Of a stretch of DNA of 64,000 bases, positions 10,801-38,745 are shown in pieces. How positions within the stretch are numbered: position 1 is the first letter of the stretch; every line of letters begins with the position of its first letter. Source of the DNA: an uncultured Rhodospirillaceae bacterium (lineage in GTDB: Bacteria > Pseudomonadota > Alphaproteobacteria > Ferrovibrionales > Ferrovibrionaceae); the NCBI GenBank assembly GCA_964429465.1, contig CAYSCA010000002.1, positions 7,702 to 71,701 on the forward strand, written 5' to 3'. A program made the translations under genes and the position numbers. The notes under the pieces are model-generated. The model ran no database searches. It saw nothing but the letters and a program-made list of their open reading frames with translations, and was not told the DNA's origin.

Positions 10801-10803
10801 GGC

Positions 10804-12039: not shown

Positions 12040-12067
12040 AGTCACTGAATGAAGGGGGATACGACTC

Positions 12068-13294
12068 TCAGCCGCGCAGCTCGACGATATTGTCGCCGGC
12101 GGGCGCCGTCGCCGGCCTGAGCCAGGGCAGGACCAGTCGGTCGACGTTGTCCAGGCCTTCAAGCAGGCCGGGGATCACCACCTCGGACGGGAGCGGCTGC
12201 CGCGGCAGGTGGCGCAATGCCGCGGCCATCGCGGCTGGGTCGTAGCTGCCGTCATCCTCTAGCATCCGCACCAGGCCAAGCTTTTCTGCGCGATGTGCCC
12301 GGATGAACTGCTCCATGCGGGGACGCTTTCGCGGCACGATAATGGCCCGCTTGTCCAGCGAGAGGATTTCACAAAAGGTGTTGTAGCCGCCCATGGCGAC
12401 GACGCCGACCGCATTCTGGACCAGATGCTCCATATGCGCATCAAATGTGATTGCCTCGACGCGCGGCAAGTGCGCAACGCGATTCAGGAATTCGATGCGG
12501 CGCTCGCGCTGCATGAACGGCCCGAGTACGATCAGCGCCGGATAGGGCAGGATTTCGTGGCTTTCGTAGGCGCGCAGCACCCAGTCGATCAGCCCTTCGC
12601 CATCGCCTCCGCCGCCCGGTGTCACCAGCAGAAAGGGGCGCTGGGTGATTTCAGGCAGCTGATGCTCGGGCGGGGTTTCAGCCGAGAAACGCGGCAGATA
12701 TCCGGTGTAGACGACTTTCCGGCGCACCCGTTCCGGCAGCGCGATCCCCTCCAGCGGGTCGCAGAACTGCGGCAGGCCGTAGACCCAGATCTGGTCGAAC
12801 AGATTCTTGAGGGCCGGCATGACATTCTTGCGTTCCCATTCCGGCGCGAGGGCGCTGGGTTCGTCCATGACGTCGCGCAGGCCGAGCACCAGCCGGGTGC
12901 CGCGAGCCTTCAGCATCTTCATGGTTTCCAGAACCTCGCCTCGGAGGCCAAGCGGCTCCTTGTCGACGATGAAAATATCGGGGTCGAAAATCCGAGCAGT
13001 ATGCTGAATGATCTCGGCCCGGATCTTCAGCGTCTCGTCAATGCCCATGGGCAGGTTAAGAGAAGTGTACTGACCATCCCGAAGCTTGATCACGCCGGGG
13101 ATACGGACGAAGTCCACCCGGCTGCGGAAATCGAAGCTGCCGATGATGGGGGAGCCAGAAATGATCAGGACCGACATGTCTCGGTGGCGTTCCACCAGAG
13201 CATGGGCCAACGTGCGGCATCGGCGCAAATGGCCCAAGCCGAAGGTGTCGTGGCTGTAGATCAGCACACGGGTTCCGTCGCTGCGCGATACCAT
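12068..13294 (-). CDS. glycosyltransferase, GT-B fold (MurG/GT28-like, 'GxGHxxR' type)
   Basis: Start set at ATG 13292-13294 ('MVSRSDGTRVLIYSHDTFGLGHLRRCRTLAHAL'), preceded by AAGGGGGG. Paralog of the 7917-9077 product. Confidence 0.75.
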   Translation of the reverse strand: MVSRSDGTRVLIYSHDTFGLGHLRRCRTLAHALVERHRDMSVLIISGSPIIGSFDFRSRVDFVRIPGVIKLRDGQYTSLNLPMGIDETLKIRAEIIQHTARIFDPDIFIVDKEPLGLRGEVLETMKMLKARGTRLVLGLRDVMDEPSALAPEWERKNVMPALKNLFDQIWVYGLPQFCDPLEGIALPERVRRKVVYTGYLPRFSAETPPEHQLPEITQRPFLLVTPGGGGDGEGLIDWVLRAYESHEILPYPALIVLGPFMQRERRIEFLNRVAHLPRVEAITFDAHMEHLVQNAVGVVAMGGYNTFCEILSLDKRAIIVPRKRPRMEQFIRAHRAEKLGLVRMLEDDGSYDPAAMAAALRHLPRQPLPSEVVIPGLLEGLDNVDRLVLPWLRPATAPAGDNIVELRG

Positions 13295-13471
13295 ACCGGG
13301 TACCCCCCTTGGGACCTCTGCCGGGACTATGGCACAGGCTCCCGCCCGAGGCCAAGGCCCTGACATATAGGTGATTCCCGCCACGTTCCGGGCCGGCCGC
13401 GGTCATTGGCGGCGGGGGCGGGCTGGGCTAAGGTCCTGCAATAATTCGGGAAGGCTACGGGGAAAGGCTCC

Positions 13472-21949: not shown

Positions 21950-23143
21950 TCAGCGCACGAAGACATGCACCTCGTTGGCGGCGCTCTGGGCGTTGCTGGC
22001 GGCTGCCACATTCACCCGGCTGGCCGGCAGTCCCATATCGGCCAAGGAGCGCAGCACGCGATCGGCATTGCGCCGCGCCTGGTTCTGGTTGCTGGCTGCC
22101 TGGGCCGGGGTCCCGCCTGCGGCGATGGCGACCACATCGAACATGGCATTCGGCTTGCGGGCCAGCGCCTGCGACACGGCATTGTAGAGCGCCTGCTGGT
22201 AGGGGACATCGGCGCGATCGAAACGGATCACCACCAGCGGCGTACGGCCGACGGTGCTGACCGGCGCCGCGGTATCGGCGGCCGCGAATTGCTGCGCGCC
22301 GGCGAAATAGGTCGCGCGGTTGCCAAGCGCCGGGCCCAGCAGCTCACCCTGCTTGATGGCGGCCGAAAGCGTCGTGAGATTGGTCCGCTCACTGCCGACA
22401 TAATTGGTCTGCCGGGCGACATCCTGGCTGAGTTCGCCCAGGAGGCGGTCGATCAGCACCACGGTCTTGGCGGTTTCATCCTCCAGGACGGCCAGCTGGC
22501 GGTGATCCTCGTCAATCGCCCCCGACAGGCTGTAGGTCGACTTGATCGATTGCAGCAGGTAGGTGGCCATCGCCGAATCGGCGGCCACCTGGTTGCCCAG
22601 GCTGCTGAGCTGGTTCACGTCGGCAGCCATCTGGTCCAGCTGGACCTGGGCCTGATTCCACTGGCTGATCAGGATCGGGTTGCCAGGTGTGGTGCCCATC
22701 TGCAAACGGGTACTGACCGCGGCGACAAGTCCATGATAACGCTGGGAATTTTGAGTTGCCTGATTGCGGACGGTCTGCAGCGACTGGTTGCGCTGGGTTA
22801 CCTGCTGCTGCAGCTGCGCGAGCTCCCCGCGCATCTGCTGGACCTTCTGGCCGACATAGGTGCCGGTCGACTGGCCGGGGGTAACGCCGGGAACCACGAA
22901 ATTCGTGCTGCCCATGGTGGGCGGGCTAAGCGTGGGCTGCGGGTTGGCTTCGGCCGGAGAGGCCGGAATCTGCTGAGCATTGGCGACCGGGGCCTGACCA
23001 GCCGGATCGTCTCCGGTCAGCGAGGGCCACAATTCGTCGGAAACGTAGGAGCAACCGGAGAGCAGAAGCGCTGCTGTGGCCAGAGTCCCCGCCGAGGCCA
23101 GACCGCGACGCCGCAGCGCCGGATTATGAACAAGATGTGCCAT
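21950..23143 (-). CDS. lipoprotein, Q/N-rich coiled-coil-like middle, function unknown
   Basis: Lipobox 'ALLLSGC' after a basic n-region ('MAHLVHNPALRRRGLASAGTLATAALLLSGC'). Start is uncertain (ATG 23143 or 23182; the track ORF extends to 23287). Confidence 0.65.
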   Translation of the reverse strand: MAHLVHNPALRRRGLASAGTLATAALLLSGCSYVSDELWPSLTGDDPAGQAPVANAQQIPASPAEANPQPTLSPPTMGSTNFVVPGVTPGQSTGTYVGQKVQQMRGELAQLQQQVTQRNQSLQTVRNQATQNSQRYHGLVAAVSTRLQMGTTPGNPILISQWNQAQVQLDQMAADVNQLSSLGNQVAADSAMATYLLQSIKSTYSLSGAIDEDHRQLAVLEDETAKTVVLIDRLLGELSQDVARQTNYVGSERTNLTTLSAAIKQGELLGPALGNRATYFAGAQQFAAADTAAPVSTVGRTPLVVIRFDRADVPYQQALYNAVSQALARKPNAMFDVVAIAAGGTPAQAASNQNQARRNADRVLRSLADMGLPASRVNVAAASNAQSAANEVHVFVR

Positions 23144-23405
23144 GCCGCGCCGTCTCGCGTTGCTATTATAATGACTTGTCATGCTGGCCTGAGGCCCCCC
23201 GTTGCACATGGCGCAACCGTCGCCGCGCGACCGGTACACACCCTCTGCTAACATGCCTATTCTACGGGCGCGCCGGACCGCTCGCAAGCTTCATCTGTGA
23301 GTAGAATCCGAGGGTTGTGGGCGACAGAACCAGTCCAGTCAGGGCCCTTGCATAGCCGGGGCTAATTGAGTAGGTTCCGCCCCCGTCGCGGTTTTCGCCG
23401 CTTGC

Positions 23406-23482
23406 GCGCTCGTAGCTCAGCTGGATAGAGCACCAGACTACGAATCTGGGGGTCAGGAGTTCGAATCTCTTCGAGCGCGCCA
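23406..23482 (+). tRNA. tRNA-Arg (anticodon ACG), CCA encoded
   Basis: Cloverleaf read by eye: acceptor GCGCTCG/CGAGCGC, D arm GCTC-AGCTGGATA-GAGC, anticodon stem CCAGA/TCTGG with loop CTACGAA, T arm AGGAG-TTCGAAT-CTCTT, discriminator G, then CCA. Confidence 0.9.
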
Positions 23483-23611: not shown

Positions 23612-26590
23612 TCAGACCGGGACGGGGCGGCGCAGCCGCTGGCAGAAATCGGCGAACTCCTCCTTGGTAATGGCGAAGGCAGCCAGCGCCTCGAATCGCT
23701 GCAGGATCTGTCGCCATTTGGCCTCGGAGGAGGTCAGCACGCCATCCTGGATGAAGGTCACCAGATAGCCCCGCTCCAGAGCCGAATGGGCCGTCTGCTT
23801 GACCGAGGTCACGCCGTCCATGCCGGCAATGAAAAGATGCTCGATTCCGTTCTCGCGCAGGAAGCTGTTCAGCCGCGCGCTGGAAAAGGCATCTGGCGCA
23901 TGCTTGGAGAAGACGTGCTCCGAAACCCGGCGGAGGCTGGCCCCGGTTCCGGGTGTGCCGATCTCAAATTCACCTGCATTCCTTATCTGCTGGTGCGTCA
24001 GGTGTCTCCACCGCCCGGACTCACGCTGTGCATAAAGCACCATGACGCCTGATCTTGCCGCAAGGCTCGATATATCGTTGATCGTGTCAATCAGGCGGCC
24101 GTTCGCCGTTTTTATCCGCGAATGGCCGGTCGGGGTGCCGGCAGCGTCAGGAACGTCGATGACCAGCAGAGCGTGGCGCCGGATGGTGGGGCCCGCTCGT
24201 CGGACCTCATCCCGCACCGGCCCGCCGGAATCCCAGCCGGTCAGGGAGGGGGTGATCGCGCCTGTCGGCGAGGACTGGTAGCACTCGAACTCGGTCGAGA
24301 AGTAAGTCCCCTCCGTATACCCATAACTCGCTTGCTGCCGTTCGTTCACCATCGTGACGACCGATCCGACAAGGAATGCATCCGAGCGCCGCAGCTTTTT
24401 CGCCGCCGTTGCAATGGCATCGCGCGGCGTTCCGCCCCACCGCACGGCCAGTACGGTGGCATCGGCATGTTGCGCCAGGAGCACGGCTTCTGATGCCGAA
24501 AGGACAGGCGGGGCGTCGATAATCACGAGATCGTAGCGATCTCGCAGCGAGCCCAGCAGGTCAGGAAGCCTGCGCGTCCAGGTCAGGAGCGACCCGCGCG
24601 AAAACCTGCCCGGAAGCATGACATCGGTGCCGGAGACAACATCGGAAATGATGACCTCGTCGGGGGCTGCAGTATTCTCAAGCACTTCTGCCAGGCCTGC
24701 TCCGGTACGGATGCCGAGCGCCTCACTCGTGCCCTTCTTCCAGAAATCCGCGTCGAGAAGCAGGACGCGATTGCCGCATTGCGCCGCCAGGGCAGCGAGA
24801 CTGAGCGCCAGAGTGGTCTTCCCATCGCCGGGTAGGGCTGAGGTGATTACCGTCACCCGCGGGGGGCTGCTCATCGAGAACAGAGCCGCATAAGCGGCTT
24901 TCAGGGCCTCGCGGTAGGAGGAGCCGTAGCGAGCGGCCTGTGCCGGAGAGCGGCGGGCCGCCTCAGACATCGGAAGCATTCCGAGACCGGAAATCCTGAG
25001 CTGGGCCTCCAGTTCCCGAAGGCTTCGGATGCTGCGATCCGATTTCTCGATCAGGAGTACCACGAGGCCGGCGGCGATCAGTGAGGCGATTCCGGAAACC
25101 AGAATCAGGAGCACTTTCTTGGGGCGTTCGGGAAGAACAGGCAGCTGGGCGTAAGAGGCGATCTGCGCGTCGGGCTTCTGCCACGATGTGTCGGCGTTCT
25201 GGCTAGTCGTTGTCAGCCGCGCCATGAAATCGTCGAGGATGCGGCGGTCGGCCTGCGCCGTGCGTTCCAGTGCGCGCAACGCCACATCGGCATTGTTCAT
25301 CCGGGCCACATCGGCCTTTAGGGCGCCGAGCCGTTGCCGCAGATCCTGCTCTCTCATGCGCGCGATCTGCAGGTCGTTTTCAACGGACGCGATTACGCGC
25401 TGGTTTTCCCGGCGCATCGCCGCATGGATGTTCCGGAGTTTCTCCCGCAATCCCACGGCCGGCGGATACTTCTCTCCGAATTCCGTCGACATCTCGGCGA
25501 GTTGCTGCTGGACCTTGGCTTCTTCGGTCTGCAGTGTTTCCATCAGTGGCGACTCGACGACATCGGTGGTGATGCGGTTGCGCCCGCCGACGTCGATCGA
25601 AGCCCGGTATTGCCGCAGACGCGCCTCGAGGGCAGCGCGTTCCGTCTCGGCAGTTGCGAGTTCGGCGCTGACATCCGTCATCTGCTTGAGCAGCAGCGGT
25701 GAACCGCCGGGCATGGAGAAAAGCCCGTTACGGGAGCGAAATTCCTCTACCGCTCGTTCGGCATTGGCAACCTTTGTTTCCAGTTGCGCAATTCGCTCGC
25801 GCAGCCACTCTGACGTCCGCCTGGCAGATTGCGCGCGCAGATCGAGCTGCCGGTCGACATAATGGTCGACCAGCGTATTGGCTATCCGCATGGCCAGCTC
25901 GGCATCGCGCGACTCAAAGGCGACATCGATCATGCGGGAGTTGTTCCGGATGCCCACCTGCAGACGAGACAGAAAGCCCTGTACCGCCTGGGAGAGCGCG
26001 GCCGAGGCCCCTGCGGGTTGCTCGGCGGACTGGTCGCCCAGGATCCAGAGCCTGATCCGCAACACCAGGTTTCTGATCTGCGCCACGACGCCGGTTTCCC
26101 CCCGTGCCGCCTGGGCTGGATTGATTTCCGGGTGGTTTTCCAGTGCGAGGGCGCGGATCACCGTCGCGGCGAGCTGCGGGGAATGGAGGATCTCGACGGC
26201 GGTTTGCACGGCTCCCGTATCAGGCGGAAGGGCAGGAGCCGTGTCCCGGCTCGCCCGACTGGTTTCGGTGGAATCACCGAGGACTACCAGCGCATGGGCG
26301 ACATAACGAGGCGGCAACTGCACGATGATCGCTGCGGCGAGGCCGGTCCCGAGAACGGCTATGGCGGCGAACAGGAATTTCCGGCGCCAGAGCGTGCGAA
26401 GGATTGCTGCGTAATCAAGCGCATCGCTGTCGTGCGGCGGCATCGGGCCGCCGATATCGTCTTCCATATGGGATGGGCGACCCGGATTACGCGCCGCAAA
26501 CCCGTGAGCGGCAGGGACTAGGTCATTTGTCCGGGGCTGTCCGGGCCATCTTCCGGGGTGGTCCGGTCGCCACACGCCGCTCTCACCCAT
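23612..26590 (-). CDS. polysaccharide co-polymerase / BY-tyrosine autokinase (ExoP/Wzc-like) fused to a C-terminal isochorismatase-like hydrolase domain
   Basis: 992 aa. ATG 26590 is preceded by GGAGG. Contains a Wzz-like N-terminal TM region, coiled-coil, second TM, Walker A 'LPGDGKTT', A' 'LLLDADF', B 'LVIIDAPP' and Tyr cluster 'SYGYTEGTYFSTEFECY'. These are followed by 'ALLVIDV...SKHAPDAF...IAGMDGVTSVKQTAHSALERGYLV'. Confidence 0.85.
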   Translation of the reverse strand: MGESGVWRPDHPGRWPGQPRTNDLVPAAHGFAARNPGRPSHMEDDIGGPMPPHDSDALDYAAILRTLWRRKFLFAAIAVLGTGLAAAIIVQLPPRYVAHALVVLGDSTETSRASRDTAPALPPDTGAVQTAVEILHSPQLAATVIRALALENHPEINPAQAARGETGVVAQIRNLVLRIRLWILGDQSAEQPAGASAALSQAVQGFLSRLQVGIRNNSRMIDVAFESRDAELAMRIANTLVDHYVDRQLDLRAQSARRTSEWLRERIAQLETKVANAERAVEEFRSRNGLFSMPGGSPLLLKQMTDVSAELATAETERAALEARLRQYRASIDVGGRNRITTDVVESPLMETLQTEEAKVQQQLAEMSTEFGEKYPPAVGLREKLRNIHAAMRRENQRVIASVENDLQIARMREQDLRQRLGALKADVARMNNADVALRALERTAQADRRILDDFMARLTTTSQNADTSWQKPDAQIASYAQLPVLPERPKKVLLILVSGIASLIAAGLVVLLIEKSDRSIRSLRELEAQLRISGLGMLPMSEAARRSPAQAARYGSSYREALKAAYAALFSMSSPPRVTVITSALPGDGKTTLALSLAALAAQCGNRVLLLDADFWKKGTSEALGIRTGAGLAEVLENTAAPDEVIISDVVSGTDVMLPGRFSRGSLLTWTRRLPDLLGSLRDRYDLVIIDAPPVLSASEAVLLAQHADATVLAVRWGGTPRDAIATAAKKLRRSDAFLVGSVVTMVNERQQASYGYTEGTYFSTEFECYQSSPTGAITPSLTGWDSGGPVRDEVRRAGPTIRRHALLVIDVPDAAGTPTGHSRIKTANGRLIDTINDISSLAARSGVMVLYAQRESGRWRHLTHQQIRNAGEFEIGTPGTGASLRRVSEHVFSKHAPDAFSSARLNSFLRENGIEHLFIAGMDGVTSVKQTAHSALERGYLVTFIQDGVLTSSEAKWRQILQRFEALAAFAITKEEFADFCQRLRRPVPV

Positions 26591-26691
26591 CTGAACCTCC
26601 GTCTCGGCGGGCCGGCAGCCAGCCAGCCGTTCTGCCCAAACTCCGCGGGTGCCTTGCCGGCCTGCAATTTGTCGCTTGTATCCTCACCCGC

Positions 26692-26733
26692 GACTCGATA
26701 AGAAAAGAAAAGAAAAGAAAAAGCAAGAATAAG
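26692..26733. promoter_or_regulatory. (GAAAA)n polypurine tract element, copy 1 (divergent promoter region)
   Basis: gactcgataaGAAAAGAAAAGAAAAGAAAAAgcaagaataag in the 185-bp gap between divergent genes. Related tracts lie at 28897-28944 and 42877-42932. Confidence 0.6.
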
Positions 26734-26775
26734 TTCGGGGGCACAGACCGAAGCCGGGACCGGGGAGGAGAATCG

Positions 26776-28260
26776 ATGTCTGGCGGTGGCGATGTTCTCT
26801 ACGGGCCGAAACCCGCTATTTTGGACCGTCTGCCGTTCCAGATCGGATCCAGGTCGTCACCGCGCAAGCCTCGGGTCCCATCGGCAACCGATCTGCAGAC
26901 GCGCCTGCCAGGACTTGTGATCGTGTGGGACTGGCTGGGGATTACCGCGGCGGGGTTGCTGATCGATGTGGCCCTGGCCCAGGAAGACGTCAGCGAGCCG
27001 TCCCGCTACCTGGATATCGTGCTCGCGGCCACGCTGGCGGTTAATTACCTGCATCTGCTTCGCGGCTATTGCATTCCCAGCATGCATAAAATGGGTGTCC
27101 AGGTGACGAAGGCGTCCCTGGCCTGGTTCGGCGCCTTCGCCAGCGTGGCGGCAATCGACTATGCGGCCGGGCAGGTAACTGAATTCGGGGAAATCTGGGC
27201 GGGCCTCTGGTTCGTCAGCGCATGGCTGTTCATTTGCACGTCCAGAGGGCTGGTGGGTTCCCTGCTATCGCGCTGGCAAAGGGACGGTCGGCTGGCCCGC
27301 AGGATTGCAGTGCTCGGGACGGGACCAGCCGCCGCTGTTCTCGCGCGCAGATTGCAGGCCCATAGCGAGGAGGCTACCGTCATTGGTCTTTTTGTCGAAG
27401 ACGACGTTGCGGCGGGAGTGGATGAAAGCGCAGGGAGTCTGGACCGTCTTACATTGCTGGCCAATTCCGGCGAAGTCGACGAGGTGATCCTCGCAATAAC
27501 CGGCGACCCATCTGCGGGCTTGCGGCAGACAATGGCGAAACTGGCGCTGACCCAGGTCGAGGTGAAGATTTCTCCACGGCTCCCCGATCTCGGCTTTCCG
27601 GTCCAGGGGCTCAGCAAAGTGGCCGGCATCTCAGCTCTGACGATCCAGGCGAGACCGTTGTCCGGCTGGGGCGCCCCCCTGAAGCGCGCGGAAGACATCG
27701 TACTGACCAGCTTTCTGCTTATCCTGCTGACGCCACTGCTGCTGCTGCTCGCCGTGCTCATCAAGCTGGACAGCCCGGGTCCTGTGATATTCCGGCAGGA
27801 GCGCCACGGGTTCAACAATAACCGGTTCTGCGTTTTTAAGTTCCGCACCATGCATCATGTGCCGGATCCGGATCCCGGCATTCCCCAGGCACGGCGCAAT
27901 GACCCGCGCGTGACGCGCATTGGCGCCATCCTCCGCTGCACCAGCCTGGATGAACTCCCCCAGTTGTTTAATGTCCTGTTGGGTGACATGTCGCTCGTCG
28001 GACCCCGGCCCCACGCGACGGCACACAACGACAAGTATGCCCCTCTCATTGATGGCTATCTGGCACGGCACCGCGTGCGGCCCGGCATTACCGGCTGGGC
28101 TCAGGTGAATGGCTGGCGAGGCGAAACGGAAACGCTCGAAAAGATGCGGAATCGCCTTGAGCACGACCTGTTCTACATCGCCAACTGGTCGCTGCTGCTG
28201 GATCTGAAAGTTCTGGCTTTGACATTTCCCGTCATCGTGCGCGGGACGAATGCCTACTGA
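26776..28260 (+). CDS. undecaprenyl-phosphate hexose-1-phosphate transferase (WbaP/ExoY-family priming glycosyltransferase)
   Basis: ATG 26776 follows GGGGAGGAG. TM-rich N-terminus. C-terminal bacterial sugar transferase motifs 'PGPVIFRQERHGFNNNRFCVFKFRTM...DELPQLFNVLLGDMSLVGPRP'. Confidence 0.9.
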   Translation: MSGGGDVLYGPKPAILDRLPFQIGSRSSPRKPRVPSATDLQTRLPGLVIVWDWLGITAAGLLIDVALAQEDVSEPSRYLDIVLAATLAVNYLHLLRGYCIPSMHKMGVQVTKASLAWFGAFASVAAIDYAAGQVTEFGEIWAGLWFVSAWLFICTSRGLVGSLLSRWQRDGRLARRIAVLGTGPAAAVLARRLQAHSEEATVIGLFVEDDVAAGVDESAGSLDRLTLLANSGEVDEVILAITGDPSAGLRQTMAKLALTQVEVKISPRLPDLGFPVQGLSKVAGISALTIQARPLSGWGAPLKRAEDIVLTSFLLILLTPLLLLLAVLIKLDSPGPVIFRQERHGFNNNRFCVFKFRTMHHVPDPDPGIPQARRNDPRVTRIGAILRCTSLDELPQLFNVLLGDMSLVGPRPHATAHNDKYAPLIDGYLARHRVRPGITGWAQVNGWRGETETLEKMRNRLEHDLFYIANWSLLLDLKVLALTFPVIVRGTNAY

Positions 28261-28310
28261 TTGCGAAGGGATTAGTGGCGGTCGAAGCTTTGGCGCGGTG
28301 GCGGCGCCGG

Positions 28311-28784
28311 CTATGGAAGCCTTCTGCGACGAGTACTCTTGCGGCTCTCCAGGACTCGCTCGATTTCCACCCGGGTGCGCGCGCTCGAGCGCAGCAACCG
28401 GTCGGTGGCAAGGAGCAGCGCTTCAAAGTTGGCATCGCTGTCGCTGAGAGAGATTGCATCCAGGCCGGCCAGAAACGATGCGATATCGCTGTTGACGCGC
28501 TCCCATATTTCATCGGCGGAACGTCGCACCGGGTGAATCCTGCTTTCGACGGAAACGACTTGCGCGGTCACGCGATCGTTTTCGCCGCGGGCGGGAGACT
28601 GGTTTGCTGCGGTATCAGGCTTCGTCGGCGAATGATCGGCGCGATGAACGATGTAGCGGATCGCCGGCGCCGTGCACTCGTAGCTTCGGGCTATATCGGC
28701 CAACGTCTCCCCCTTCCGGAAGCGCGCGATAATCTTCGGCCATTCTTCTCGGCGGATTTTCCCGCGAATTCTGGCTTTGCTCAA
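28311..28784 (-). CDS. small putative DNA-binding protein (N-terminal helix-turn-helix)
   Basis: 157 aa with a TTG start. 'KGETLADIARSYECTAPAIRYIVHR' looks like a Hin/IS-type HTH. The rest is low-complexity/helical. No family assigned. Confidence 0.5.
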   Translation of the reverse strand: MSKARIRGKIRREEWPKIIARFRKGETLADIARSYECTAPAIRYIVHRADHSPTKPDTAANQSPARGENDRVTAQVVSVESRIHPVRRSADEIWERVNSDIASFLAGLDAISLSDSDANFEALLLATDRLLRSSARTRVEIERVLESRKSTRRRRLP

Positions 28785-28896
28785 TTCACCTAGCCCTCAT
28801 TGTATCATGCACGCGAATCGTAGCATGCAGGTCGTGCGTGACCAAACGGTGATATAGGCGCCGGCAGGCAATCTTACAAGAATGCATTTGCCCTGT

Positions 28897-28990: not shown

Positions 28991-29839
28991 ATGACAAAAA
29001 TGATTCAGGAAGTAGACGCATTGGTGGCGGGAGAGAGAGGGGCGGTCCGACGACTGAAGTCGCCGCCGGTGGCGATCCTGGCCGGCGGCCTCGGGACCAG
29101 GCTCTCCGAGGAGACAAGTGCCCGGCCGAAACCCCTCGTCGAGATTGGCGGCAAGCCAATCATCTGGCACGTCATGAAGCATTACGACGTCCACGGGATG
29201 AACGAGTTCATCATCGCCCTCGGCTACAGGAAAGAAGCGGTAATCCAGTATTTTCTCAATCTGCATACCTATAGCCAGAATCTGACCGTACGCACGCGGG
29301 ATGGTTTCACCTCCCTCCACGGACCGGCTGCAGGGCCGGATTGGACGGTCCATCTGATCGATACGGGTGCTGAAACGGCGACGGGCGGGCGCATCAAGCG
29401 GCTGCAGCCCTATCTAGGCGGCGGCACCTTCATGCTCACCTGGTGCGACGGCATCTCCAACGTCAACCTCGATGAGCTGCTGGCCTTCCATCGCGCCCAC
29501 GGAAAACTGGCTACAATAACTGTGGTTCGCGCACCGTCCCGCTTCGGCTTCGTCGAACTGGCGGGCAACAGCATGGTTCAGCGCTTTACCGAAAAGCCCG
29601 AGCAGGGCGAGGGCTGGATCAACGGCGCCTTCTTCGTGCTAGAGCCGGGCATATTCGACTACATCGCTGGCGACGACACGATGTGGGAGCGCGAGCCGCT
29701 GCAGGCGCTCGCAGCCGACGGCGAGCTCGTCGCCTACACGCATCGTTCCTACTGGCAATGCATGGATACACTGCGGGAAAAGATCCTCCTCGAGGATCTG
29801 TGGTCCAAAGGCGTCGCGCCCTGGAAGACCTGGGAATGA
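28991..29839 (+). CDS. rfbF: glucose-1-phosphate cytidylyltransferase
   Basis: 'VAILAGGLGTRLSEETSARPKPLVEIGGKPIIWHVMKHY...GGRIKRL' matches the RfbF/DdhA family pattern. The N-terminal ~25 aa may be an over-extension, so the start is uncertain. Confidence 0.8.
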   Translation: MTKMIQEVDALVAGERGAVRRLKSPPVAILAGGLGTRLSEETSARPKPLVEIGGKPIIWHVMKHYDVHGMNEFIIALGYRKEAVIQYFLNLHTYSQNLTVRTRDGFTSLHGPAAGPDWTVHLIDTGAETATGGRIKRLQPYLGGGTFMLTWCDGISNVNLDELLAFHRAHGKLATITVVRAPSRFGFVELAGNSMVQRFTEKPEQGEGWINGAFFVLEPGIFDYIAGDDTMWEREPLQALAADGELVAYTHRSYWQCMDTLREKILLEDLWSKGVAPWKTWE

Positions 29840-29856: not shown

Positions 29857-30981
29857 ATGAAGATTCTCGTCACCGGTCACACAGGCTATATCGGGACCAT
29901 TCTCACGCAAATGCTGCTGCAGGCAGGCCATCAGGTGGTGGGTGTCGACACCGAGCTCTTTGCGGGATGCACCTTCGGCACCGACACATCCTCCGATATC
30001 GTCACGGTCAACTCCGACATACGGGACCTGACGGTCGCCCAGCTCCGTACCGTGGATGCCATCGTCCACCTTGCGGGAATCTGCAACGATCCTCTTGGGG
30101 ATCTGTTTCCGGAAACGACGATGGACGTCAACGACACGGCGACGATCCGGCTGGCAGAACTGGCCCGGGAAGCCGGCGTTGAGCGGTTTGTTTTTTCGTC
30201 CACCTGCAGCGTATATGGCGCGGCGGAACAGGACTGGGTCGACGAGACATCGAAAACCAATCCGGTCACGCCTTACGCTGTATCGAAGTATCGGGCAGAA
30301 CGAGGGTTGCTCGCTCTCGCCAATGACCGGTTTTCTCCTGTGCTGCTTCGCAGCGCCACCGCCTACGGATTTTCGCCACGTATCCGGTTCGATCTGGTTT
30401 TAAACAACCTGATGGCACATGCCGTAACGACCGGACGGGTCTTCCTTAAGAGTGACGGGACGGCGTGGCGGCCCCTGGTCCATATCGCGGATATCAGTAG
30501 GGCATTCTTGGCGGCAGTCGAGGCGCCACGGGAAGCCGTCCATTGCGAGACATTCAATGTCGGAACAACTGCTGAGAACTATCGGGTGCGCAGCATAGCG
30601 GAGATCGTCCGGAACACGGTGGAGGGGGCCGCGATCGCCTATGCCGACGGTGCCGCAACCGACAAGCGCTCTTACCGTGTGAGCTTCAGAAAAATCGAAA
30701 GCAGGCTTCCGAACTTCAAGCCGCAATGGACCGCCATGGCAGGAGCGCTGGAACTTCATGCCTGCTACGCGAAATTTGGCCTTGCGCTCGAGGACTTTGA
30801 AGGGGCGCGTTATCAGCGCCTGGCGCATCTCAAATCTTTGTTGGCGGCCGGCATTCTCGATCAGTCGCTACGCAAACTGCCGCGGTCTCATGAACCAGTG
30901 CCGGCGGCGGAGGGCTTTGCGCCGGCCTTCCGCGATGCACCAGCCGTGGATGTCCAGTCGAGCGGAGTGAGTCAACCGTGA
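29857..30981 (+). CDS. NAD-dependent epimerase/dehydratase (extended SDR)
   Basis: AGGGGGA RBS. 'MKILVTGHTGYIGT' Rossmann motif, 'YAVSKY' catalytic YxxxK. 374 aa. Confidence 0.8.
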   Translation: MKILVTGHTGYIGTILTQMLLQAGHQVVGVDTELFAGCTFGTDTSSDIVTVNSDIRDLTVAQLRTVDAIVHLAGICNDPLGDLFPETTMDVNDTATIRLAELAREAGVERFVFSSTCSVYGAAEQDWVDETSKTNPVTPYAVSKYRAERGLLALANDRFSPVLLRSATAYGFSPRIRFDLVLNNLMAHAVTTGRVFLKSDGTAWRPLVHIADISRAFLAAVEAPREAVHCETFNVGTTAENYRVRSIAEIVRNTVEGAAIAYADGAATDKRSYRVSFRKIESRLPNFKPQWTAMAGALELHACYAKFGLALEDFEGARYQRLAHLKSLLAAGILDQSLRKLPRSHEPVPAAEGFAPAFRDAPAVDVQSSGVSQP

Positions 30982-32201
30982 CGACGAAACGTTGCCCGAA
31001 TTGCGGCGTGGAAGATGGGTACATCTTCCACCGGATATTCCAGGTGCCGGTGAACAGTTGCCTGATGTTTGCCGACCGCAGCCGCGCCGAAGGCCTGAAG
31101 AGGGGCGATATACATCTGGCGTTCTGCGAAAATTGTGCCTTCGTCTTTAATGCCGCCTGGGAGAGCGGCGCCACGGTATATTCCGATCTGTATGAGGAAA
31201 CGCAGGTTTTCTCGGAAACCTATCGGGTCTATCAGCAACAGCTCGCAGAGGATCTGATCGGCCGATATGACCTGTTTGGGAAGGAGATCGTCGAGATCGG
31301 CTGCGGCAAGGGTGCTTTTCTTCGCTTGCTCTGCGACATGGGGGATAATGCCGGGATCGGATACGATCCGAGTTTCGTGCCTGAGAGGGCTGAAACAGGC
31401 AAAGCGAACATCACCTTCAGGCGGGAGTATTTCTCCGAAAATACCGACCAGGCGGCTCCGGATTTCGTCTGCTGCCGCATGACGCTGGAGCATATCGCCG
31501 AGACGCAGCGTTTTGTGCGGGCTGTACGGCGGATTGCCTCGCCGGAACGCGGTACCGTCGTTTTCTTCCAGATTCCTGATGTCCGTCGAATTCTCGCCGA
31601 GGGCGCGTTCTGGGACATCTATTATGAGCATTGTTCCTATTTCTCTCCGGCCTCTCTCGGATACCTCTTCCGCAGCGCAGGGTTTGACATCCTGCGGATG
31701 GATTGTGGCTATGACGATCAGTATCTGACGATCGAGGCCTATCCGGCGCAATCGGCGGGCAGGGCGGAAGCAGCAGCGCATGACGGAAATGTGGAACAGT
31801 TGACCAGAGACGTGGCGAACTTCTCATACGCCGCTTCCGAATGCGCAGCATATTGGGATGCGCTAATCGGCTCTGTTACCCGCAAGGGAGGCCGGGTCGC
31901 ATTGTGGGGCTCCGGATCAAAGGCTGTCGCCTTTCTCTCGGCGGTCAAGGCGGCAGAAAAGATCGAGTACCTGGTCGACATCAATCCTTTCCGCTGGGGG
32001 AAATTCGTCCCAGGCACCGGAAAGCAGATCGTGGGCCCCGAACATCTGTCACGGTTTCCGCCGGACCTAGTGATTGCAATGAACCCGATCTACCGGCAGG
32101 AGATCGCCGCCGACTTGGTCCGGTATGGTGGCGGCGCCGTGACTTTGGGTGCACTCGGAGATCTGCAGGCCGAGCCGGTCTCCGCCAGTACGCTGATCTG
32201 A
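30978..32201 (+). CDS. SAM-dependent sugar C-methyltransferase-family protein (Zn-ribbon + MTase + C-terminal domain)
   Basis: GTG start in a GTGA overlap. 'CPNCG...CENC' Cys4, 'VEIGCGKGAF' motif I, C-terminal 'VALWGSGSKAVAFL...DINPFRWGKFVPGTGKQIV'. Confidence 0.75.
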   Translation: MTTKRCPNCGVEDGYIFHRIFQVPVNSCLMFADRSRAEGLKRGDIHLAFCENCAFVFNAAWESGATVYSDLYEETQVFSETYRVYQQQLAEDLIGRYDLFGKEIVEIGCGKGAFLRLLCDMGDNAGIGYDPSFVPERAETGKANITFRREYFSENTDQAAPDFVCCRMTLEHIAETQRFVRAVRRIASPERGTVVFFQIPDVRRILAEGAFWDIYYEHCSYFSPASLGYLFRSAGFDILRMDCGYDDQYLTIEAYPAQSAGRAEAAAHDGNVEQLTRDVANFSYAASECAAYWDALIGSVTRKGGRVALWGSGSKAVAFLSAVKAAEKIEYLVDINPFRWGKFVPGTGKQIVGPEHLSRFPPDLVIAMNPIYRQEIAADLVRYGGGAVTLGALGDLQAEPVSASTLI

Positions 32202-33016
32202 TGTCGAACGCGGTTGCCTCCACGACCAACTTCTCGGAGGAAGAGTTTATGCATCCACGGCCAGAAGTGCTCGGCGTCCCCGTGAGCGCGCTGACCATGA
32301 ATGACGCCCTGGCATCCATAGACGAATGGATTACCCGGGCTCAGCGTCACTACATCTGCACCATCGATGTCCATGCGCTGGTTGAAAGTCAGTTCGCCTC
32401 GGATGTCCAGGCCATTTATCGCTCGGCCGCGATGGCCACGCCGGACGGCATGCCTCTCGTCTGGCTCCTGCGCCAGCAAGGCTACCCGGCCGCAGATCGC
32501 ATATGCGGTCCCGACCTGATGCCGGCAGTTTTCCGGATGTCGGAAGCGCGCGGCTACCGGCATTTCCTCTATGGTTCTTCCGAGGAGACGCTCCTGCTGA
32601 TCCGGCAGGAGCTCGGTCGCGAATTTCCTGAAGCAAGAATCGTAGGCCACCACTCGCCCCCATTCCGTCCGCTGACCCGCGACGAGGAGCAGGAGATCGA
32701 CGAAATGCTGAATGCCGCCAACCCAGATATTATCTGGGTCGGCCTCGGCGCCCCGAAACAGGATCGCTGGATGGCAGCGCATCGCGATGCATTGAACGCG
32801 CCGGTCCTGATCGGCGTGGGTGGGGCGTTCGAGATGATGGCCGGCAAGGTGAAGCGGGCGCCGCGAATGCTGCGGCGCACAGGTTTCGAGTGGGTGTTTC
32901 GCCTGGCCCAGGAGCCGCGTCGCCTTACCGGCCGCTATCTGCGATCCAATTTCCAGTTTGTCATGATGCTGGCCAGCCAGAGATGGCGTGCGGCGCGGCG
33001 TGCGGTGGACGCCTGA
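32201..33016 (+). CDS. WecB/TagA/CpsF family glycosyltransferase (GT26)
   Basis: ATG 32201 overlaps the upstream TGA by 1 nt. 'ATPDGMPLVWLLR...WVGLGAPKQDRWMA...GVGGAFEMMAGKVKRAP'. Confidence 0.85.
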   Translation: MSNAVASTTNFSEEEFMHPRPEVLGVPVSALTMNDALASIDEWITRAQRHYICTIDVHALVESQFASDVQAIYRSAAMATPDGMPLVWLLRQQGYPAADRICGPDLMPAVFRMSEARGYRHFLYGSSEETLLLIRQELGREFPEARIVGHHSPPFRPLTRDEEQEIDEMLNAANPDIIWVGLGAPKQDRWMAAHRDALNAPVLIGVGGAFEMMAGKVKRAPRMLRRTGFEWVFRLAQEPRRLTGRYLRSNFQFVMMLASQRWRAARRAVDA

Positions 33017-33075
33017 GGGATTGCGTTTGCTCCATACCGGATGTTCGTCTTCCAGCTTCAGCAGGAGAAACAAGC

Positions 33076-34458
33076 ATGCGAATTCGTGAATGCCGATCCT
33101 GCCAGAGCCGCTCGCTTCATATCATCCTCGATCTGGGAAACCATCCACCATCCAATGCGCTGCTTCCCTCGGCAGCAGCGGCCGAGAAGGAGGAACGCTA
33201 TCCGCTGCAGCTGGCATTCTGCGCGGACTGCGCGATGCTGCAACTGACTGAAACGGTCCCGCCCGAAATTCTGTATCAGCGCGACTTCCCCTATTATTCC
33301 TCTTCATCTCCCGCTCTGCTGCAGCATGCTTCGGACATCGCCGACCGCCTGATCCGGGAGCGGCACCTCGGCCCCGACAATCTCGTCGTGGAGGTTGCAA
33401 GTAACGATGGCTACCTGTTGCGAAATTTTCTCGAACGGGGAGTTCCATGCCTCGGTATTGACCCGGCAGACGGCCCCGCCGAGCAGGCGCGTAGGTCGGG
33501 TATTTCCACGCTGACCGACTTTTTCTCTCTCAGATTGGCGGACCGCCTCGCGGGCGAGGGATATCGGGCCGATGTCATGGTCGCCAACAATGTCCTGGCT
33601 CATGTCCATGCAATCAACGACTTCGTCGCCGGCTTTGCCAGGCTTCTGGCGGACGACGGTGTCGCGGTGTTTGAGATCGCTTATGCCGTCGACATGATCC
33701 AGAAATGCGAGTTCGATACCATATACCATGAACACCACTTCTATCACACGCTGCACGGACTCATCCCGCTCTTTGCCCGGCACGGTCTGCACATAAACGA
33801 CGTCCAGCGGCTCCCCATTCATGGCGGGTCGTTACGCCTCTGGGTGAGCAGGGATACCAGGCAGAGTGCCTCGTTCGAGCAACTGTTTCGCTACGAGCGG
33901 GAACTCGGGGTCGATCGCCTGGACTGGTATGAAGGCTTTGCCGAGCGCGTCGCCGAGCTCAGAGAGTCGCTCAGCAGCATGCTGCGCGCCGAAAAGAGCC
34001 GGGGGAAACGGATCGCGGCCTACGGTGCCGCCGCGAAAGGGTCGACTCTCGTCAACTGCCTCGATCTGGAGCCTGGATTCTTCGAATTCGTAGCCGATGC
34101 CACCCCATTCAAGCACGGCAAACTGATGCCCGGCCAGCATATCCCGATTGTTCCCCCCGATCATCTGCTCAAAAGCCGGCCGGACCTGGTGCTGCTGCTG
34201 GCCTGGAATTTTGCCGGCGAAGTGCTCCACCAGCAGGCCGCCTATCGCGCTGCCGGCGGGCGGTTCCTCATCCCCATTCCGCGCCCCCGTATCATCGAGC
34301 CGGACGAGGGCATCGGCGAAGGGCAGTTTGCGCTCGGCATCCAACCGGCCCGGCGTGCTAACACGGAAGCGTCAGCGTCGCCTGACCGGTTGGCAGAGCC
34401 GTCGCCTTACGGAGGTGGGGCCGCTCCGCCCGACGCACCACAAGCGCATCCGTTATGA
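33076..34458 (+). CDS. SAM-dependent sugar C-methyltransferase-family protein (second paralog)
   Basis: ATG 33076 follows GCAGGAG. 'CRSCQS...LDLGNHPPSNAL...CADC' Zn-ribbon, 'EVASNDGYLL' motif I, 'IAAYGAAAKGSTLV...ADATPFKHGKLMPGQHIPIV'. Confidence 0.8.
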   Translation: MRIRECRSCQSRSLHIILDLGNHPPSNALLPSAAAAEKEERYPLQLAFCADCAMLQLTETVPPEILYQRDFPYYSSSSPALLQHASDIADRLIRERHLGPDNLVVEVASNDGYLLRNFLERGVPCLGIDPADGPAEQARRSGISTLTDFFSLRLADRLAGEGYRADVMVANNVLAHVHAINDFVAGFARLLADDGVAVFEIAYAVDMIQKCEFDTIYHEHHFYHTLHGLIPLFARHGLHINDVQRLPIHGGSLRLWVSRDTRQSASFEQLFRYERELGVDRLDWYEGFAERVAELRESLSSMLRAEKSRGKRIAAYGAAAKGSTLVNCLDLEPGFFEFVADATPFKHGKLMPGQHIPIVPPDHLLKSRPDLVLLLAWNFAGEVLHQQAAYRAAGGRFLIPIPRPRIIEPDEGIGEGQFALGIQPARRANTEASASPDRLAEPSPYGGGAAPPDAPQAHPL

Positions 34459-35783
34459 AGCAGGCGTGGTCCGTCTTTGCGCTGGCGCTGGGCTGGATCA
34501 TTCCCAACCGGCTGATGAAATTCGCCTTTATCGACCAGGTCGTGGCCAGCGGCGGAAACTTCCTGGGCGTGATCCTGCTCGCGCGCGCCCTGGGAATCTA
34601 CGAGCTTGGCCGGTTTGCTTTGGCGTGGATGCTGGTCGAGTTCATGGCCACGCTGCAATTTGCCGGCATTATTCAGCCCATGCTCAATATCGGGCCGAAG
34701 CAGCCCGAGGCGGATAGTCCCCGATACTATCATGCGGTGCTTGCCCAACAGGTCGCGGCCTGCATACTACTCGGTCTGCTGGCGTTTGCCGGCGTTCTGC
34801 TGACCGCCTGGCTTACGCCCATATCCAGATTGACCGAGATGGCACTGCCGTTGGGCGTCACAATCATCGCGTATCAACTATACGAATTCTTTCGCCGCTA
34901 TCTCTTCGCCCGGGGGCGCCCCGGAGCGGCTCTCGGCATAGACCTGCTACGGTTCGGATGCCAGCTTGGGGCGATCCTGGCGCTGCCTTATGCATTGCCC
35001 GATGCTACTGCGGAAGCTGGCATCTGGATCATCGCTGCGGCCTGTTCGATCGCCATGAGCCAGGGGGCCCGCCTGTTCGGCAGGTTCGAATGGAATGCTG
35101 CGGCCTTCCGCAGTGTACTGCGCCGCCACTGGCATTTCTCGAAATGGATGCTGCCCTCCGGCCTCATGTTCTGGGCGACCACACAGGCCTTCATGGCTGT
35201 ATCTGGGATCATGCTTGGTGCTGCCGCGACTGGCGCCCTGAAGGCGGCAACCACCATCACCGGTGTCCTGAATCTCCTGTTGCTGTCGCTGGACAATTTC
35301 GCGCCGGTGCAGGCAGCGCGTGCTCTGCATGAGGGCGGACCGGCGGAACTACGCCGTTACATCGGACGGTTGGCCGTGCTCTGCGCAACCCTGATTGCCG
35401 CCGCCATAGCATTGCTCAATGCCGCGCCGGATTATGTGGTGCACCTGCTCTACGGCGAGGAATATCAGGGGCTCGGCCAGCTCGTCCGGCTGTTATGCGC
35501 TCCGGCTGCCGTTTACGGAATCGGTGCTGTTCTGATCATCTGGGCCGCTGCCCTCGAGAATACGCGCCTTATTTTCTGGTCCTACGCAGTCGCAACCCCA
35601 TTCAGCGTCATCGTTGCTTTTCCTCTGGTCGAGTATGGAGGCATAACCGGACTGATCCTTTGCTCGCTTCTGGTGGAGAGCGTCCGGGTTGCGGTGCTTC
35701 TGATACCGCTCCTCCGCTGGAGCAGACGGAATGCCCATGACGGCGCACCCATTCGTCCGTTACCTGGCAATTCAGCGGCATAA
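34455..35783 (+). CDS. polysaccharide flippase (Wzx / MOP superfamily)
   Basis: 442-aa polytopic membrane ORF. ATGA overlap with the upstream gene. Confidence 0.75.
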   Translation: MKQAWSVFALALGWIIPNRLMKFAFIDQVVASGGNFLGVILLARALGIYELGRFALAWMLVEFMATLQFAGIIQPMLNIGPKQPEADSPRYYHAVLAQQVAACILLGLLAFAGVLLTAWLTPISRLTEMALPLGVTIIAYQLYEFFRRYLFARGRPGAALGIDLLRFGCQLGAILALPYALPDATAEAGIWIIAAACSIAMSQGARLFGRFEWNAAAFRSVLRRHWHFSKWMLPSGLMFWATTQAFMAVSGIMLGAAATGALKAATTITGVLNLLLLSLDNFAPVQAARALHEGGPAELRRYIGRLAVLCATLIAAAIALLNAAPDYVVHLLYGEEYQGLGQLVRLLCAPAAVYGIGAVLIIWAAALENTRLIFWSYAVATPFSVIVAFPLVEYGGITGLILCSLLVESVRVAVLLIPLLRWSRRNAHDGAPIRPLPGNSAA

Positions 35784-35794
35784 GGAGGTTTCTG

Positions 35795-36895
35795 TTGGCG
35801 ATCGAACGCGAACTCCTGCGCTACGCACTCTGGTCGACATGGGCCAGCGGCCTGCCGCGGCTAATGGCGCGGCGCCACGCGGGGCGGGGGGGTATCCTCT
35901 CCTTCCATCGGGTGCTGCCCCGTGGAAGCCAGACCTTTGCTTCGCAGGCTGTTCCCGTCACACCAGAGACATTCCGGGGGATTGTCCGGACGCTGAAGGA
36001 TCAGGGCTACAGTTTTCTGTCGATGAGTGGTCTTGCGGATTGGCTGCAGAGGCCAGAGGACATCGGCAAATTTGTCTGCCTGACATTCGATGACGGCTTT
36101 ACCGATACCTATACGCAGGCATTTCCCGTCTGCCAGGAGTTCGGTGTGCCTATGACTGTATATCTCGTGCCTAGCTTCGTCCGGCGCGAGTTTCCCCTCT
36201 GGCTGCTCGGCCTGGAGGCCGTGCTGGCCACGACAGACATCATCAGCCTTACGGTGGACGGGAGGGAATTCCAGTTTGCCGCCCGAACCGAACGGCAGAA
36301 GCGCTTCGCTTATCAGTCAGTGGCCCCGCTTCTCGTCGCCGCCAGACCTGAACAGGTCCGCGCGGTATGCCACGAACTGGAGCACCGCTACGGGATCGAC
36401 TTCGCCGCACTGGCTGCTCGCGATCTTCTGACGCCCGCAATGATCACAAACATGCAGGCCAGTGGGTTGGTAGAATTTGGGGCACATGGCGTTCATCATG
36501 CCTGCCTGGGGCGCCTGGATGAGGCTGAGGCCTACCGCGAGATCGCGCAGAGCAAGCAGGAATGTGAAGCCCTGCTTGGCGTGCCGGTGCATCACTTCGC
36601 CTATCCCTATGGCGACAGCGAGGCCGCCGGCCCGCGTGAGGCCGAGATGTGCCGAAGGCTTGGCTTCCGGACGGCGGTCACCACCGAGTGCAATACGATA
36701 TTCACCTCCGACCGCCTGCGTCCGTTCCTGCTGCCGCGTCTCACCTATAACGGCAACTTCCAGGATGCCCCCCTGCTCGAGTTGCTGCTGTCCGGAACCC
36801 TGCCGAGACTGCGACGGGCGTTGCGGGCTGGCGGCGCAACTGGAAAGGCCCAGTCGGCCAACGAGGCATGGAGCACCAGGGCTGAACAGGCCTAG
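35795..36895 (+). CDS. polysaccharide deacetylase family protein (NodB homology)
   Basis: TTG start 7 nt after AAGGAGG. 'LTFDDGFTDTYTQAFPVCQEFGVPMTVYLV', 'GAHGVHH', 'FAYPYGD'. Confidence 0.85.
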   Translation: MAIERELLRYALWSTWASGLPRLMARRHAGRGGILSFHRVLPRGSQTFASQAVPVTPETFRGIVRTLKDQGYSFLSMSGLADWLQRPEDIGKFVCLTFDDGFTDTYTQAFPVCQEFGVPMTVYLVPSFVRREFPLWLLGLEAVLATTDIISLTVDGREFQFAARTERQKRFAYQSVAPLLVAARPEQVRAVCHELEHRYGIDFAALAARDLLTPAMITNMQASGLVEFGAHGVHHACLGRLDEAEAYREIAQSKQECEALLGVPVHHFAYPYGDSEAAGPREAEMCRRLGFRTAVTTECNTIFTSDRLRPFLLPRLTYNGNFQDAPLLELLLSGTLPRLRRALRAGGATGKAQSANEAWSTRAEQA

Positions 36896-38708: not shown

Positions 38709-38745
38709 CCTGCGCCCCCTCGATGGTCGGTCGTGTCCGGCGATG

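Follow-up and report, generated by a model that had tools for sequence, protein, structure and literature searches.

Wzc and Etk of Escherichia coli, BceF of Burkholderia, VpsO of Vibrio, and ExoP/PssP of rhizobia are all made up of two transmembrane (TM) helices, a Wzz-type periplasmic coiled coil, and a cytoplasmic P-loop kinase. In the kinases of polysaccharide co-polymerase class 2a (PCP-2a), such as Wzc and ExoP, the Walker A motif reads GK[ST], Walker A' has both of its aspartates, Walker B has the form DxxP, and there is a cluster of tyrosines; the gene has a priming transferase as its neighbour, in a polysaccharide locus of the Wzx/Wzy type. The function of PCP-2 proteins is thought to need cycles of octamer assembly and disassembly, which phosphorylation of the tail drives and a phosphatase resets (PMC12004946), and phosphorylation-independent variants have been described as well (PMC12004946). 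The coupling of tyrosine phosphorylation, ring assembly, and polymer length in Wzc-type co-polymerases is still being worked out. All of the structural, motif, and locus features named above are shared by a protein encoded in a 64,000-nucleotide stretch of DNA (the window) from an uncultured Rhodospirillaceae bacterium (contig CAYSCA010000002.1, positions 7,702 to 71,701), and this protein has one domain more. On the reverse strand, a single open reading frame (ORF) of 992 aa with no internal stops (23612..26590, the stop codon at 23612-23614) joins a PCP-2a co-polymerase with its bacterial tyrosine kinase (BY-kinase) to an isochorismatase-like domain.

A first, sequence-only reading of this DNA had called the tail of the protein isochorismatase-like, and profile and fold now agree on it. 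Pfam finds PF00857 at residues 829-977 with 61.4 bits in the full protein (gathering cut-off 27); with the tail scanned alone, the score is 64.5 bits and profile positions 2-174 of 175 are covered. A profile search of the PDB with the tail gave 47 matches, 3eef among them at 1.9e-16. An AlphaFold2 (AF2) model of the domain alone has a predicted local distance difference test score (pLDDT) of 79.7 and a predicted template modelling score (pTM) of 0.78, and its top 50 Foldseek matches are all isochorismatase-like hydrolases (probability 1.00, template modelling score [TM-score] 0.55-0.68), in line with the three-layer alpha/beta fold of that family. The appended domain, which takes up residues 805-987 (23630..24178, reverse strand), is by profile and fold a member of the isochorismatase-like superfamily, without the cysteine that defines it.

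The fusion is not peculiar to the window. Searching with the full protein, we obtained 41 clusters (35-78% identity), each of which combines Wzz, the P-loop domain, and PF00857; ordinary ExoP proteins (700-760 aa, at most 31% identity) rank after them. With the proteins added by a profile search, there are 49-51 full-length fused proteins in total, drawn from NCBI, JGI, ENA, and Logan assemblies. When one genome per species is considered, the full fusion is present in five, namely two Ferrovibrio and three uncultured Alphaproteobacteria (metagenome-assembled genomes), and the closest genome orthologue is 78% identical, which makes Ferrovibrio or a near relative the probable source of the window. 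In the plasmid collection, no record covers at least 80% of the fused protein. The fused clade is narrow and largely uncultured, being made up of Ferrovibrio and related soil and water Alphaproteobacteria.

The active site of the appended domain is where it departs from its family. The family Asp and Lys that had been read from the sequence are indeed present, as D812 in LLVIDV (24155-24157) and K896 in FSKHAPDAF (23903-23905), and the Ser that had been placed at the nucleophile position is exact to the codon: it is S929 in GMDGVTSVKQTA, encoded by TCG at 23804-23806. In an alignment with 3eef by sequence and profile, the Cys in GLDADICVRHTA falls on S929, the Asp on D812, and the Lys on K896. 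The Asp-Lys-Cys triad of the amidohydrolase branch is incomplete in the window protein, with Ser at the Cys position, and the position of the pocket Gln is held by Pro.

How far this goes in the rest of the clade can be seen by comparing it with relatives that stand alone. A word-indexed search with the tail alone retrieved one fragment; the stand-alone relatives came from an exhaustive profile search, which gave 6809 matches at E <=0.001. Fused proteins and their fragments head its ranking at more than 150 bits, followed at 100-155 bits by stand-alone proteins of ~220 aa, in which an N-terminal TM helix precedes the same domain (e.g., P0125, P0127, and P0130-P0138). These relatives lie outside polysaccharide loci, on contigs that are short or unrelated and show no recurring neighbourhood. 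They have the Asp in 103 of 105 cases, the pocket Gln in 103 of 105, the Lys in 104 of 105, and, before filtering, the Cys in 106 of 122. In the fused proteins (n=51), the nucleophile position is occupied by Ser in 42, Ala in 5, Thr in 1, and Cys in 0. The Asp is kept in 43 of the 51, the Gln in 27, and the Lys in 31, and Asp, Lys, and Ser are all present in only 27. The sequences place the appended domain as a descendant of stand-alone, membrane-anchored Asp-Lys-Cys hydrolases.

Conservation has shifted to other parts of the domain. Over residues 918-975, the mean top-residue fraction is 0.65-0.75 in the fused clade versus 0.26-0.57 in the stand-alone family, a difference that is partly expected since the fused clade is the narrower of the two. 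An extra C-terminal helix (residues 976-987, with E978 and an invariant F979) is found only in the fused clade. For the appended domain, the ratio of nonsynonymous to synonymous substitution rates (dN/dS) against two Ferrovibrio orthologues (L001 and L002) comes to 0.23 and 0.22; the kinase has 0.07 and 0.13, and the periplasmic part 0.12 and 0.18. With dS near saturation, these values are rough. At about 0.22, the first of these ratios indicates that the appended domain is kept by selection. The GC content by codon position is the same across the three parts of the gene.

Serine is generally no substitute for cysteine on the isochorismatase-like scaffold, going by depositors' titles and general experience. 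Engineered Cys-to-Ser enzymes of the family have been deposited with intact substrate, as in TrtA C162S (6xj4, 6xje) and BiuH C169S (6xjm). Because the Cys is gone in every member and other active-site residues in many, while the domain is under purifying selection, the appended domain is most likely a pseudoenzyme, in which the fold and surface would be conserved, the catalytic residues relaxed, and activity presumably lost.

The kinase to which this domain is joined is for the most part a familiar one. It is cytoplasmic (residues 541-752, 24335..24970, reverse strand) and matches BceF (6z0p) at 1.4e-26 in phmmer, as well as VpsO, Etk, and Wzc; in Foldseek, it reaches TM-scores of 0.8-0.89 to CapAB, Etk, and BceF. 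Pfam assigns AAA_31 to residues 585-713 (43.7 bits) and also finds CbiA (30.2 bits) on the P-loop, and both, along with Wzz and Isochorismatase, are above their gathering thresholds. G590 and K591 of Walker A (TSALPGDGKT, residues 583-592, 24815..24844) are invariant in the alignment of 40 sequences, and so are D692 and P695 of Walker B (LVIIDAPP, residues 688-695, 24506..24529). To judge from its sequence, the kinase core is probably competent. The scores against two NCBIfam models are below the curated cut-offs (259.9 versus 411.7 for TIGR01005 and 85.7 versus 108 for TIGR01007).

The first part of the protein had been described as a normal ExoP/Wzc architecture, and this holds for the TM segments, the coiled coil, and Walker A and B. 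It does not hold for two further motifs. In Walker A' (VLLLDADFWK, residues 609-618, 24737..24766), D613 and D615 of DxDxR are kept and the Arg is replaced by Trp617 (TGG, 24740-24742). This Trp is invariant in the 40 aligned sequences, and of the 49 fused proteins, 48 have DxDxW and the other has Phe at this position. Unfused relatives have [DE]xDxR in 44 of 54 cases and DxDxW in a single one, itself probably a fused-clade protein that has been truncated. Likewise, none of the 75 unfused genome loci has the Walker A' Trp, which occurs only in the five fused ones. In place of the ExxRxxR oligomerisation motif, the window protein reads ExxKxxY (E561-x-x-K564-x-x-Y567, 24890..24910). This form is present in 39 of 49 fused proteins versus 1 of 54 unfused ones, and ExxRxxR is present in 24 of the 34 unfused proteins that align there.

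Both motifs belong to a contact between subunits. Shi et al. (PMC4007543) report only seven sites with 100% conservation among 796 BY-kinases, and the Arg of DxDxR belongs to them; this figure is partly circular since the motif helped to define the set. In the CapB octamer, this Arg (R81), together with E133, forms hydrogen bonds with E23, R26, and R29 on helix α2 of the neighbouring subunit (PMC2422856). This means that both sides of the canonical ring contact are altered, and only where the domain is appended.

Between the kinase and the appended domain lie the tyrosines. Y756, Y758, Y763, and Y771 are present and conserved, with Y756 and Y763 found in at least 90% of members, and a conserved PTGAIT motif (residues 775-780) follows directly (24251..24325 for cluster and motif, with the tyrosines at 24278-24325). 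The cluster is internal, 221 residues from the C-terminus, rather than on a free C-terminal tail. It is followed by a variable linker that is predicted to be disordered (residues 781-804, 24179..24250; pLDDT <50 for residues 753-803) and whose length ranges from ~20 to ~130 aa across the fused clade. From this variation in length and the low pLDDT, it follows that the appended domain is flexibly tethered. A member of the fused clade from a JGI metagenome (P0031, 1235 aa) continues after the isochorismatase-like domain into a hydrophobic segment, IASLAAVLIVGALAGW, and a PG_binding_1 domain (PF01471). Such a tail would therefore make a third membrane pass and end in the periplasm, where it would bind peptidoglycan. 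This arrangement fits a position of the appended domain near the membrane, on its cytoplasmic side.

Taken together, we favour the following explanation. A functional PCP-2a inner-membrane co-polymerase of the Wzc/ExoP type, with a cytoplasmic BY-kinase, would have gained an isochorismatase-like domain in one alphaproteobacterial lineage. The domain, which would hang in the cytoplasm on a flexible linker right after the tyrosine cluster, would have lost its ancestral amidase or hydrolase function and become a non-catalytic module, either a surface for protein-protein contact and oligomerisation or a pocket that binds a ligand or the tail. In that role, it could control how far the kinase ring is assembled or whether the tyrosine tail can reach the neighbouring active site, for example by self-association, by docking onto the kinase, or by holding the tail. 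Isochorismatase-like family members are commonly crystallised as higher oligomers, going by chain counts in the PDB matches. We hold with moderate confidence that a non-catalytic appended domain acts on cytoplasmic ring assembly or on the availability of the tyrosine tail, each step of the mechanism being conditional. What suggests such a role is the relaxed active site, the shift of conservation to other parts of the domain, the tether at the tyrosine tail, and the swap of ring contacts that occurs together with the fusion; the octamer assembly/disassembly model and the phosphorylation-independent variants make it plausible. The sequence-only reading had offered two ideas, that the domain modulates the adjacent tyrosine tail or that it acts on a substituent of the polymer. 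The evidence leans toward the former, or toward modulation of the kinase, and away from the latter because the domain is cytoplasmic, the Cys is lost in all members, and the Asp, Gln, or Lys is lost in many, although both ideas stay conditional.

One could go further and consider these proteins a new subfamily of PCP-2 that is controlled by another logic, in which an aromatic contact between Trp617 and Tyr567 would have replaced the salt bridge of the octamer and a dead domain would govern ring assembly. This domain could associate with itself beneath the ring, or what was once its active site could capture the (phospho)tyrosine tail. If that were true, the co-polymerase would have a reset that is independent of a phosphatase. 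As a whole, this extension is rather doubtful.

Several points weigh against a non-catalytic role at the ring. The full-length single-chain AF2 model has a pTM of 0.35 and packs the domains against each other without confidence, so that a contact between the domain and the ring can be put forward only as a proposal. The circularity in the conservation of the DxDxR Arg and the narrowness of the fused clade, both mentioned above, take something away from the motif swap and from the conservation of the C-terminal half. Moreover, Asp, Lys, and Ser are jointly kept in the window protein and in all relatives of at least 57% identity, and the Ser, conserved in 82-90% of the fused clade, is possibly in use; in this subclade, some remaining or changed activity, such as Ser-based hydrolysis, is therefore possible. 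A natural Ser variant of unknown function, 3mcw, is also found among the solved structures.

The last of these points bear directly on an alternative in which the appended domain would still be a working hydrolase, with Ser929, Asp812, and Lys896 as its catalytic residues, and would couple a modification step to polymerisation. Its substrate would be a small cytoplasmic molecule, a nucleotide-sugar, or an undecaprenyl-linked repeat unit of the polymer that the adjacent operon makes, and its reaction could be, for example, de-N-acylation or the cleavage of an ester or lactone. Besides the retained residues, the purifying selection on the domain and the constant linkage of the gene to a sugar-modifying operon speak for it, and the isochorismatase fold supports varied chemistry, including that of an N-acyl homoserine lactone lactonase (PMC5430456). 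However, in about 45% of the fused proteins the Asp or Lys is missing or the nucleophile is replaced by Ala or Thr, so it is not for catalysis that the clade has been conserved. At the position of the pocket Gln, which hardly varies among the stand-alone proteins, the window protein has Pro, and the Cys-to-Ser mutants were crystallised with unhydrolysed substrate (6xj4, 6xje, 6xjm). The sugar-modification genes vary between fused loci while the domain is constant, so there is no constant pathway to supply a candidate substrate. Also, loci of unfused sister kinases (75 loci) have no separate isochorismatase-like gene within 10 kb that could do the same work. Active hydrolysis is thus possible but not probable. 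The same Cys-to-Ser mutants still bind their substrate, which would suit a domain that has become a small-molecule sensor: a dead pocket would bind a metabolite, such as a nucleotide-sugar, a nicotinamide-like compound, or an amide, and its occupancy would be relayed to the kinase without any need for the domain to oligomerise, thereby tying polymer export to the metabolic state. Such a sensor would fit the retained fold, the lost nucleophile, and the place of the domain beside the regulatory tyrosine tail. It is nevertheless unlikely, given that, within the clade, no part of the domain is less conserved than the pocket positions (the Asp, the Gln, the Lys, and the loop after the Asp), which speaks against a conserved ligand, and that some members have lost the lid segment (minimum length 0).

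The surroundings of the gene suggest yet another role. The sequence-only reading had remarked that the locus lacks a separate phosphatase, and the Pfam scan of ~50 ORFs in the window bears this out: there is no Wzb (low-molecular-weight protein tyrosine phosphatase, LMW-PTP), no PHP phosphatase, and no Wza (Poly_export). Nor does any of the three occur within 10 kb in the other fused loci (L001-L005, L086-L089, and the P0037 contig). The appended domain, which directly follows the tyrosine cluster, could then replace the missing Wzb or PHP enzyme and dephosphorylate the cluster in cis. This is highly improbable. The fold is unrelated to that of LMW-PTP, PHP, or other phosphatases, and its significant matches are all amidohydrolases or isochorismatases; the tail has no LMWPc or PHP match in Pfam and neither a CX5R nor a metal-binding motif; and the residues that would serve as nucleophile and base are not kept throughout the clade. 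The genome may hold a phosphatase gene at another site, and the lack of a linked one carries little weight, as every fused locus is without one over 10 kb and the genome beyond lies out of view. The small ORF at 28311-28784 was considered as a hidden Wzb, which its size would fit, and was rejected since it is HTH-like, has no Pfam match, and has no CX5R motif. What is left is the possibility of an artefact, in which an error in sequencing or assembly has run two neighbouring genes together, or of a hydrolase remnant in decay. Beyond a linker that is of low complexity and poorly conserved, nothing was found in its favour. It was rejected, its chance being practically negligible, because the fusion recurs in many independent assemblies: ~50 independent full-length sequences run in one frame through linkers of differing length, and the domain has a dN/dS of 0.22 and is conserved down to 35% overall identity. 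The single gene that had been read from the window is real, and a missed stop or frameshift is excluded.

The remainder of the fused protein follows the Wzc plan. The Wzz domain (PF02706) covers residues 58-147 (26150..26419, reverse strand; 45 bits against a Pfam cut-off of 25.5), and the first TM helix, at residues ~72-92 by hydropathy (26315-26377), lies inside it. AF2 and Foldseek outline a periplasmic domain with long coiled-coil helices from residue ~93 to ~490 (25121..26314), its helices being modelled at residues 230-287, 297-334, 348-371, and 376-469. A hydropathy peak marks the second TM helix at residues ~492-515 (25046..25117), and a weak GNVR match in Pfam comes immediately ahead of it. 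As a whole, the full AF2 model matches the full-length Wzc structures 9r64 and 7nhr at E ~1e-26 in Foldseek. The true start may be M42 or M50 (ATG at 26465-26467 or 26441-26443) because homologues align only from residue ~49-58 and residues 1-58 have a pLDDT below 50. The listed ORF overlaps that of the divergent priming transferase by 187 nt at the 5' ends (26404-26590). Both listed starts are probably too far 5', since homology begins at about residue 49-58 in the fused protein and about residue 100 in the transferase; internal starts would leave a shared divergent promoter region.

The fused gene lies at the border of a polysaccharide locus, and a tRNA-Arg(ACG) gene (23406-23482, forward strand) lies ~130 bp past its stop codon. 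The polysaccharide genes, from ~23.6 to 39 kb, have a third-position GC of 0.63-0.77, compared to 0.78-0.83 in most flanking genes. With this low GC and the tRNA gene beside it, the locus may be a horizontally acquired island. The divergent gene codes for a priming phosphoglycosyl transferase (Bac_transf and CoA_binding_3 in Pfam; 26690..28260, forward strand, with the ORF listed from 26404), which is a partner in all of the fused loci examined. It is followed by the small ORF of 157 aa (28311-28784, reverse strand), which overlaps a forward-strand ORF (28275-28793); it has an HTH-like (helix-turn-helix) stretch, ETLADIARSYECTAPAIRYIV, and either strand is possibly coding. In each of the fused loci examined, the same slot, after the priming transferase and ahead of the next gene, is taken by a gene of 138-167 aa. 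The small ORF may be a dedicated regulator.

Farther along the forward strand, by Pfam, are a nucleotidyltransferase (28991-29839), a 4,6-dehydratase-like epimerase/dehydratase (29857-30981), a C-methyltransferase-type protein (30978-32201), a glycosyltransferase of the WecG/TagA family (31841-33016; 197.8 bits), a second C-methyltransferase-type protein (32890-34458), a flippase (34455-35783), a polysaccharide deacetylase (35795-36895), and an FkbM methyltransferase (36951-37799), with another methyltransferase at 37767-38774. Both C-methyltransferase-type proteins are Methyltransf_14, and one of them has a Methyltransf_13 zinc domain. With this set of genes, an unusual deoxy sugar, methylated at C or O, is probably part of the polymer. 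The WecG transferase is the second conserved partner of the fused gene (L001-L004, L086-L089, and the P0037 contig), and the divergent operon is syntenic in L001-L004. In distant fused members, at 35-48% identity, only the priming transferase, the small ORF, and WecG are kept, and the sugar-modification genes differ. The Wza partner that a fused co-polymerase would export through is either encoded elsewhere or absent.

Past the operon, Pfam finds a cadherin-like repeat protein (Big_9, 657 aa; 39749-41722, forward strand), a GT2 glycosyltransferase (41828-42889, reverse strand), a GT4 glycosyltransferase (42968-44188, forward strand), and a Wzy_C protein (44188-45564, forward strand). Two other loci have homologues of the cadherin-like protein (43-44% identity) close to the fused gene (L004, 18378-18869, and L005, 20824-21714), so the system may include an adhesin-like protein that is secreted or on the surface. 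On the other side of the fused gene, just past the tRNA, is an ORF of 445 aa (21950-23287, reverse strand) with a lipobox-like LLLSGC, Gln-rich coiled-coil-like repeats, and no Pfam match; it is not conserved beside the fused gene in L001-L005. A second glycosyltransferase cluster, with two GT28-like and two GT4 genes, lies at 7917-13384 (reverse strand). It contains a His_Phos_1 gene (9083-9664), ~14 kb from the fused gene and of neither the Wzb nor the PHP type. The motif C.GN.CRS does not occur anywhere in the window in a regular-expression search.

The sequence-only reading had known of no description of this fusion as an architecture. Within the library covered, a literature search for isochorismatase together with Wzc, BY-kinase, or pseudoenzyme found no paper describing it, and public records carry only automatic names, such as "isochorismatase family protein" for RefSeq WP_298723759.1 and "ExoP" or "capsular exopolysaccharide synthesis family protein" in IMG. 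The fused clade neatly illustrates how an enzyme fold can be taken on as a module that is probably non-catalytic, and it points to an undescribed way of controlling a polysaccharide-export machine. Since the clade is narrow and mostly uncultured, it will for now matter to those who specialise in capsule and exopolysaccharide assembly and in pseudoenzyme evolution.

Among known systems, the stand-alone isochorismatase-like hydrolases (structures 3eef and 3kl2, RutB, and TrtA) share the fold of the appended domain as well as the signatures GxD...[CS][VI]..TA and RGY.VT and the DAF motif, and such proteins are its best non-fused profile matches. They keep Asp, Gln, Lys, and Cys almost invariantly, whereas the fused domain never has the Cys; it also lacks their N-terminal TM anchor and has a C-terminal helix in addition. 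By architecture and most motifs, the fused protein should work like Wzc or ExoP, although it falls short of strict membership at DxDxR and ExxRxxR. Unlike the PCP-2a kinases, it has an internal tyrosine cluster followed by a linker and a domain of ~185 aa, Trp in place of the Walker A' Arg, ExxKxxY in place of ExxRxxR, and neither Wza nor Wzb nearby. With EcpK-EpsV of Myxococcus and HfsB-HfsA of Caulobacter, it shares a PCP-2 whose P-loop module departs from the BY-kinase consensus (PMC12004946). In those systems, control of the assembly state has been proposed to differ from the Wzc/Wzb phosphorylation cycle (PMC12004946). EcpK is without all of the Walker motifs and the tyrosine tail; the fused protein has Walker motifs and tyrosines and is thus not a pseudokinase of the EcpK/HfsB type. 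Beyond the classical kinases and these recently described pseudokinases, the fused clade represents a third natural design, in which the kinase core is apparently competent, both sides of the inter-subunit contact are swapped, and the tyrosine tail is capped by what appears to be a pseudo-hydrolase.

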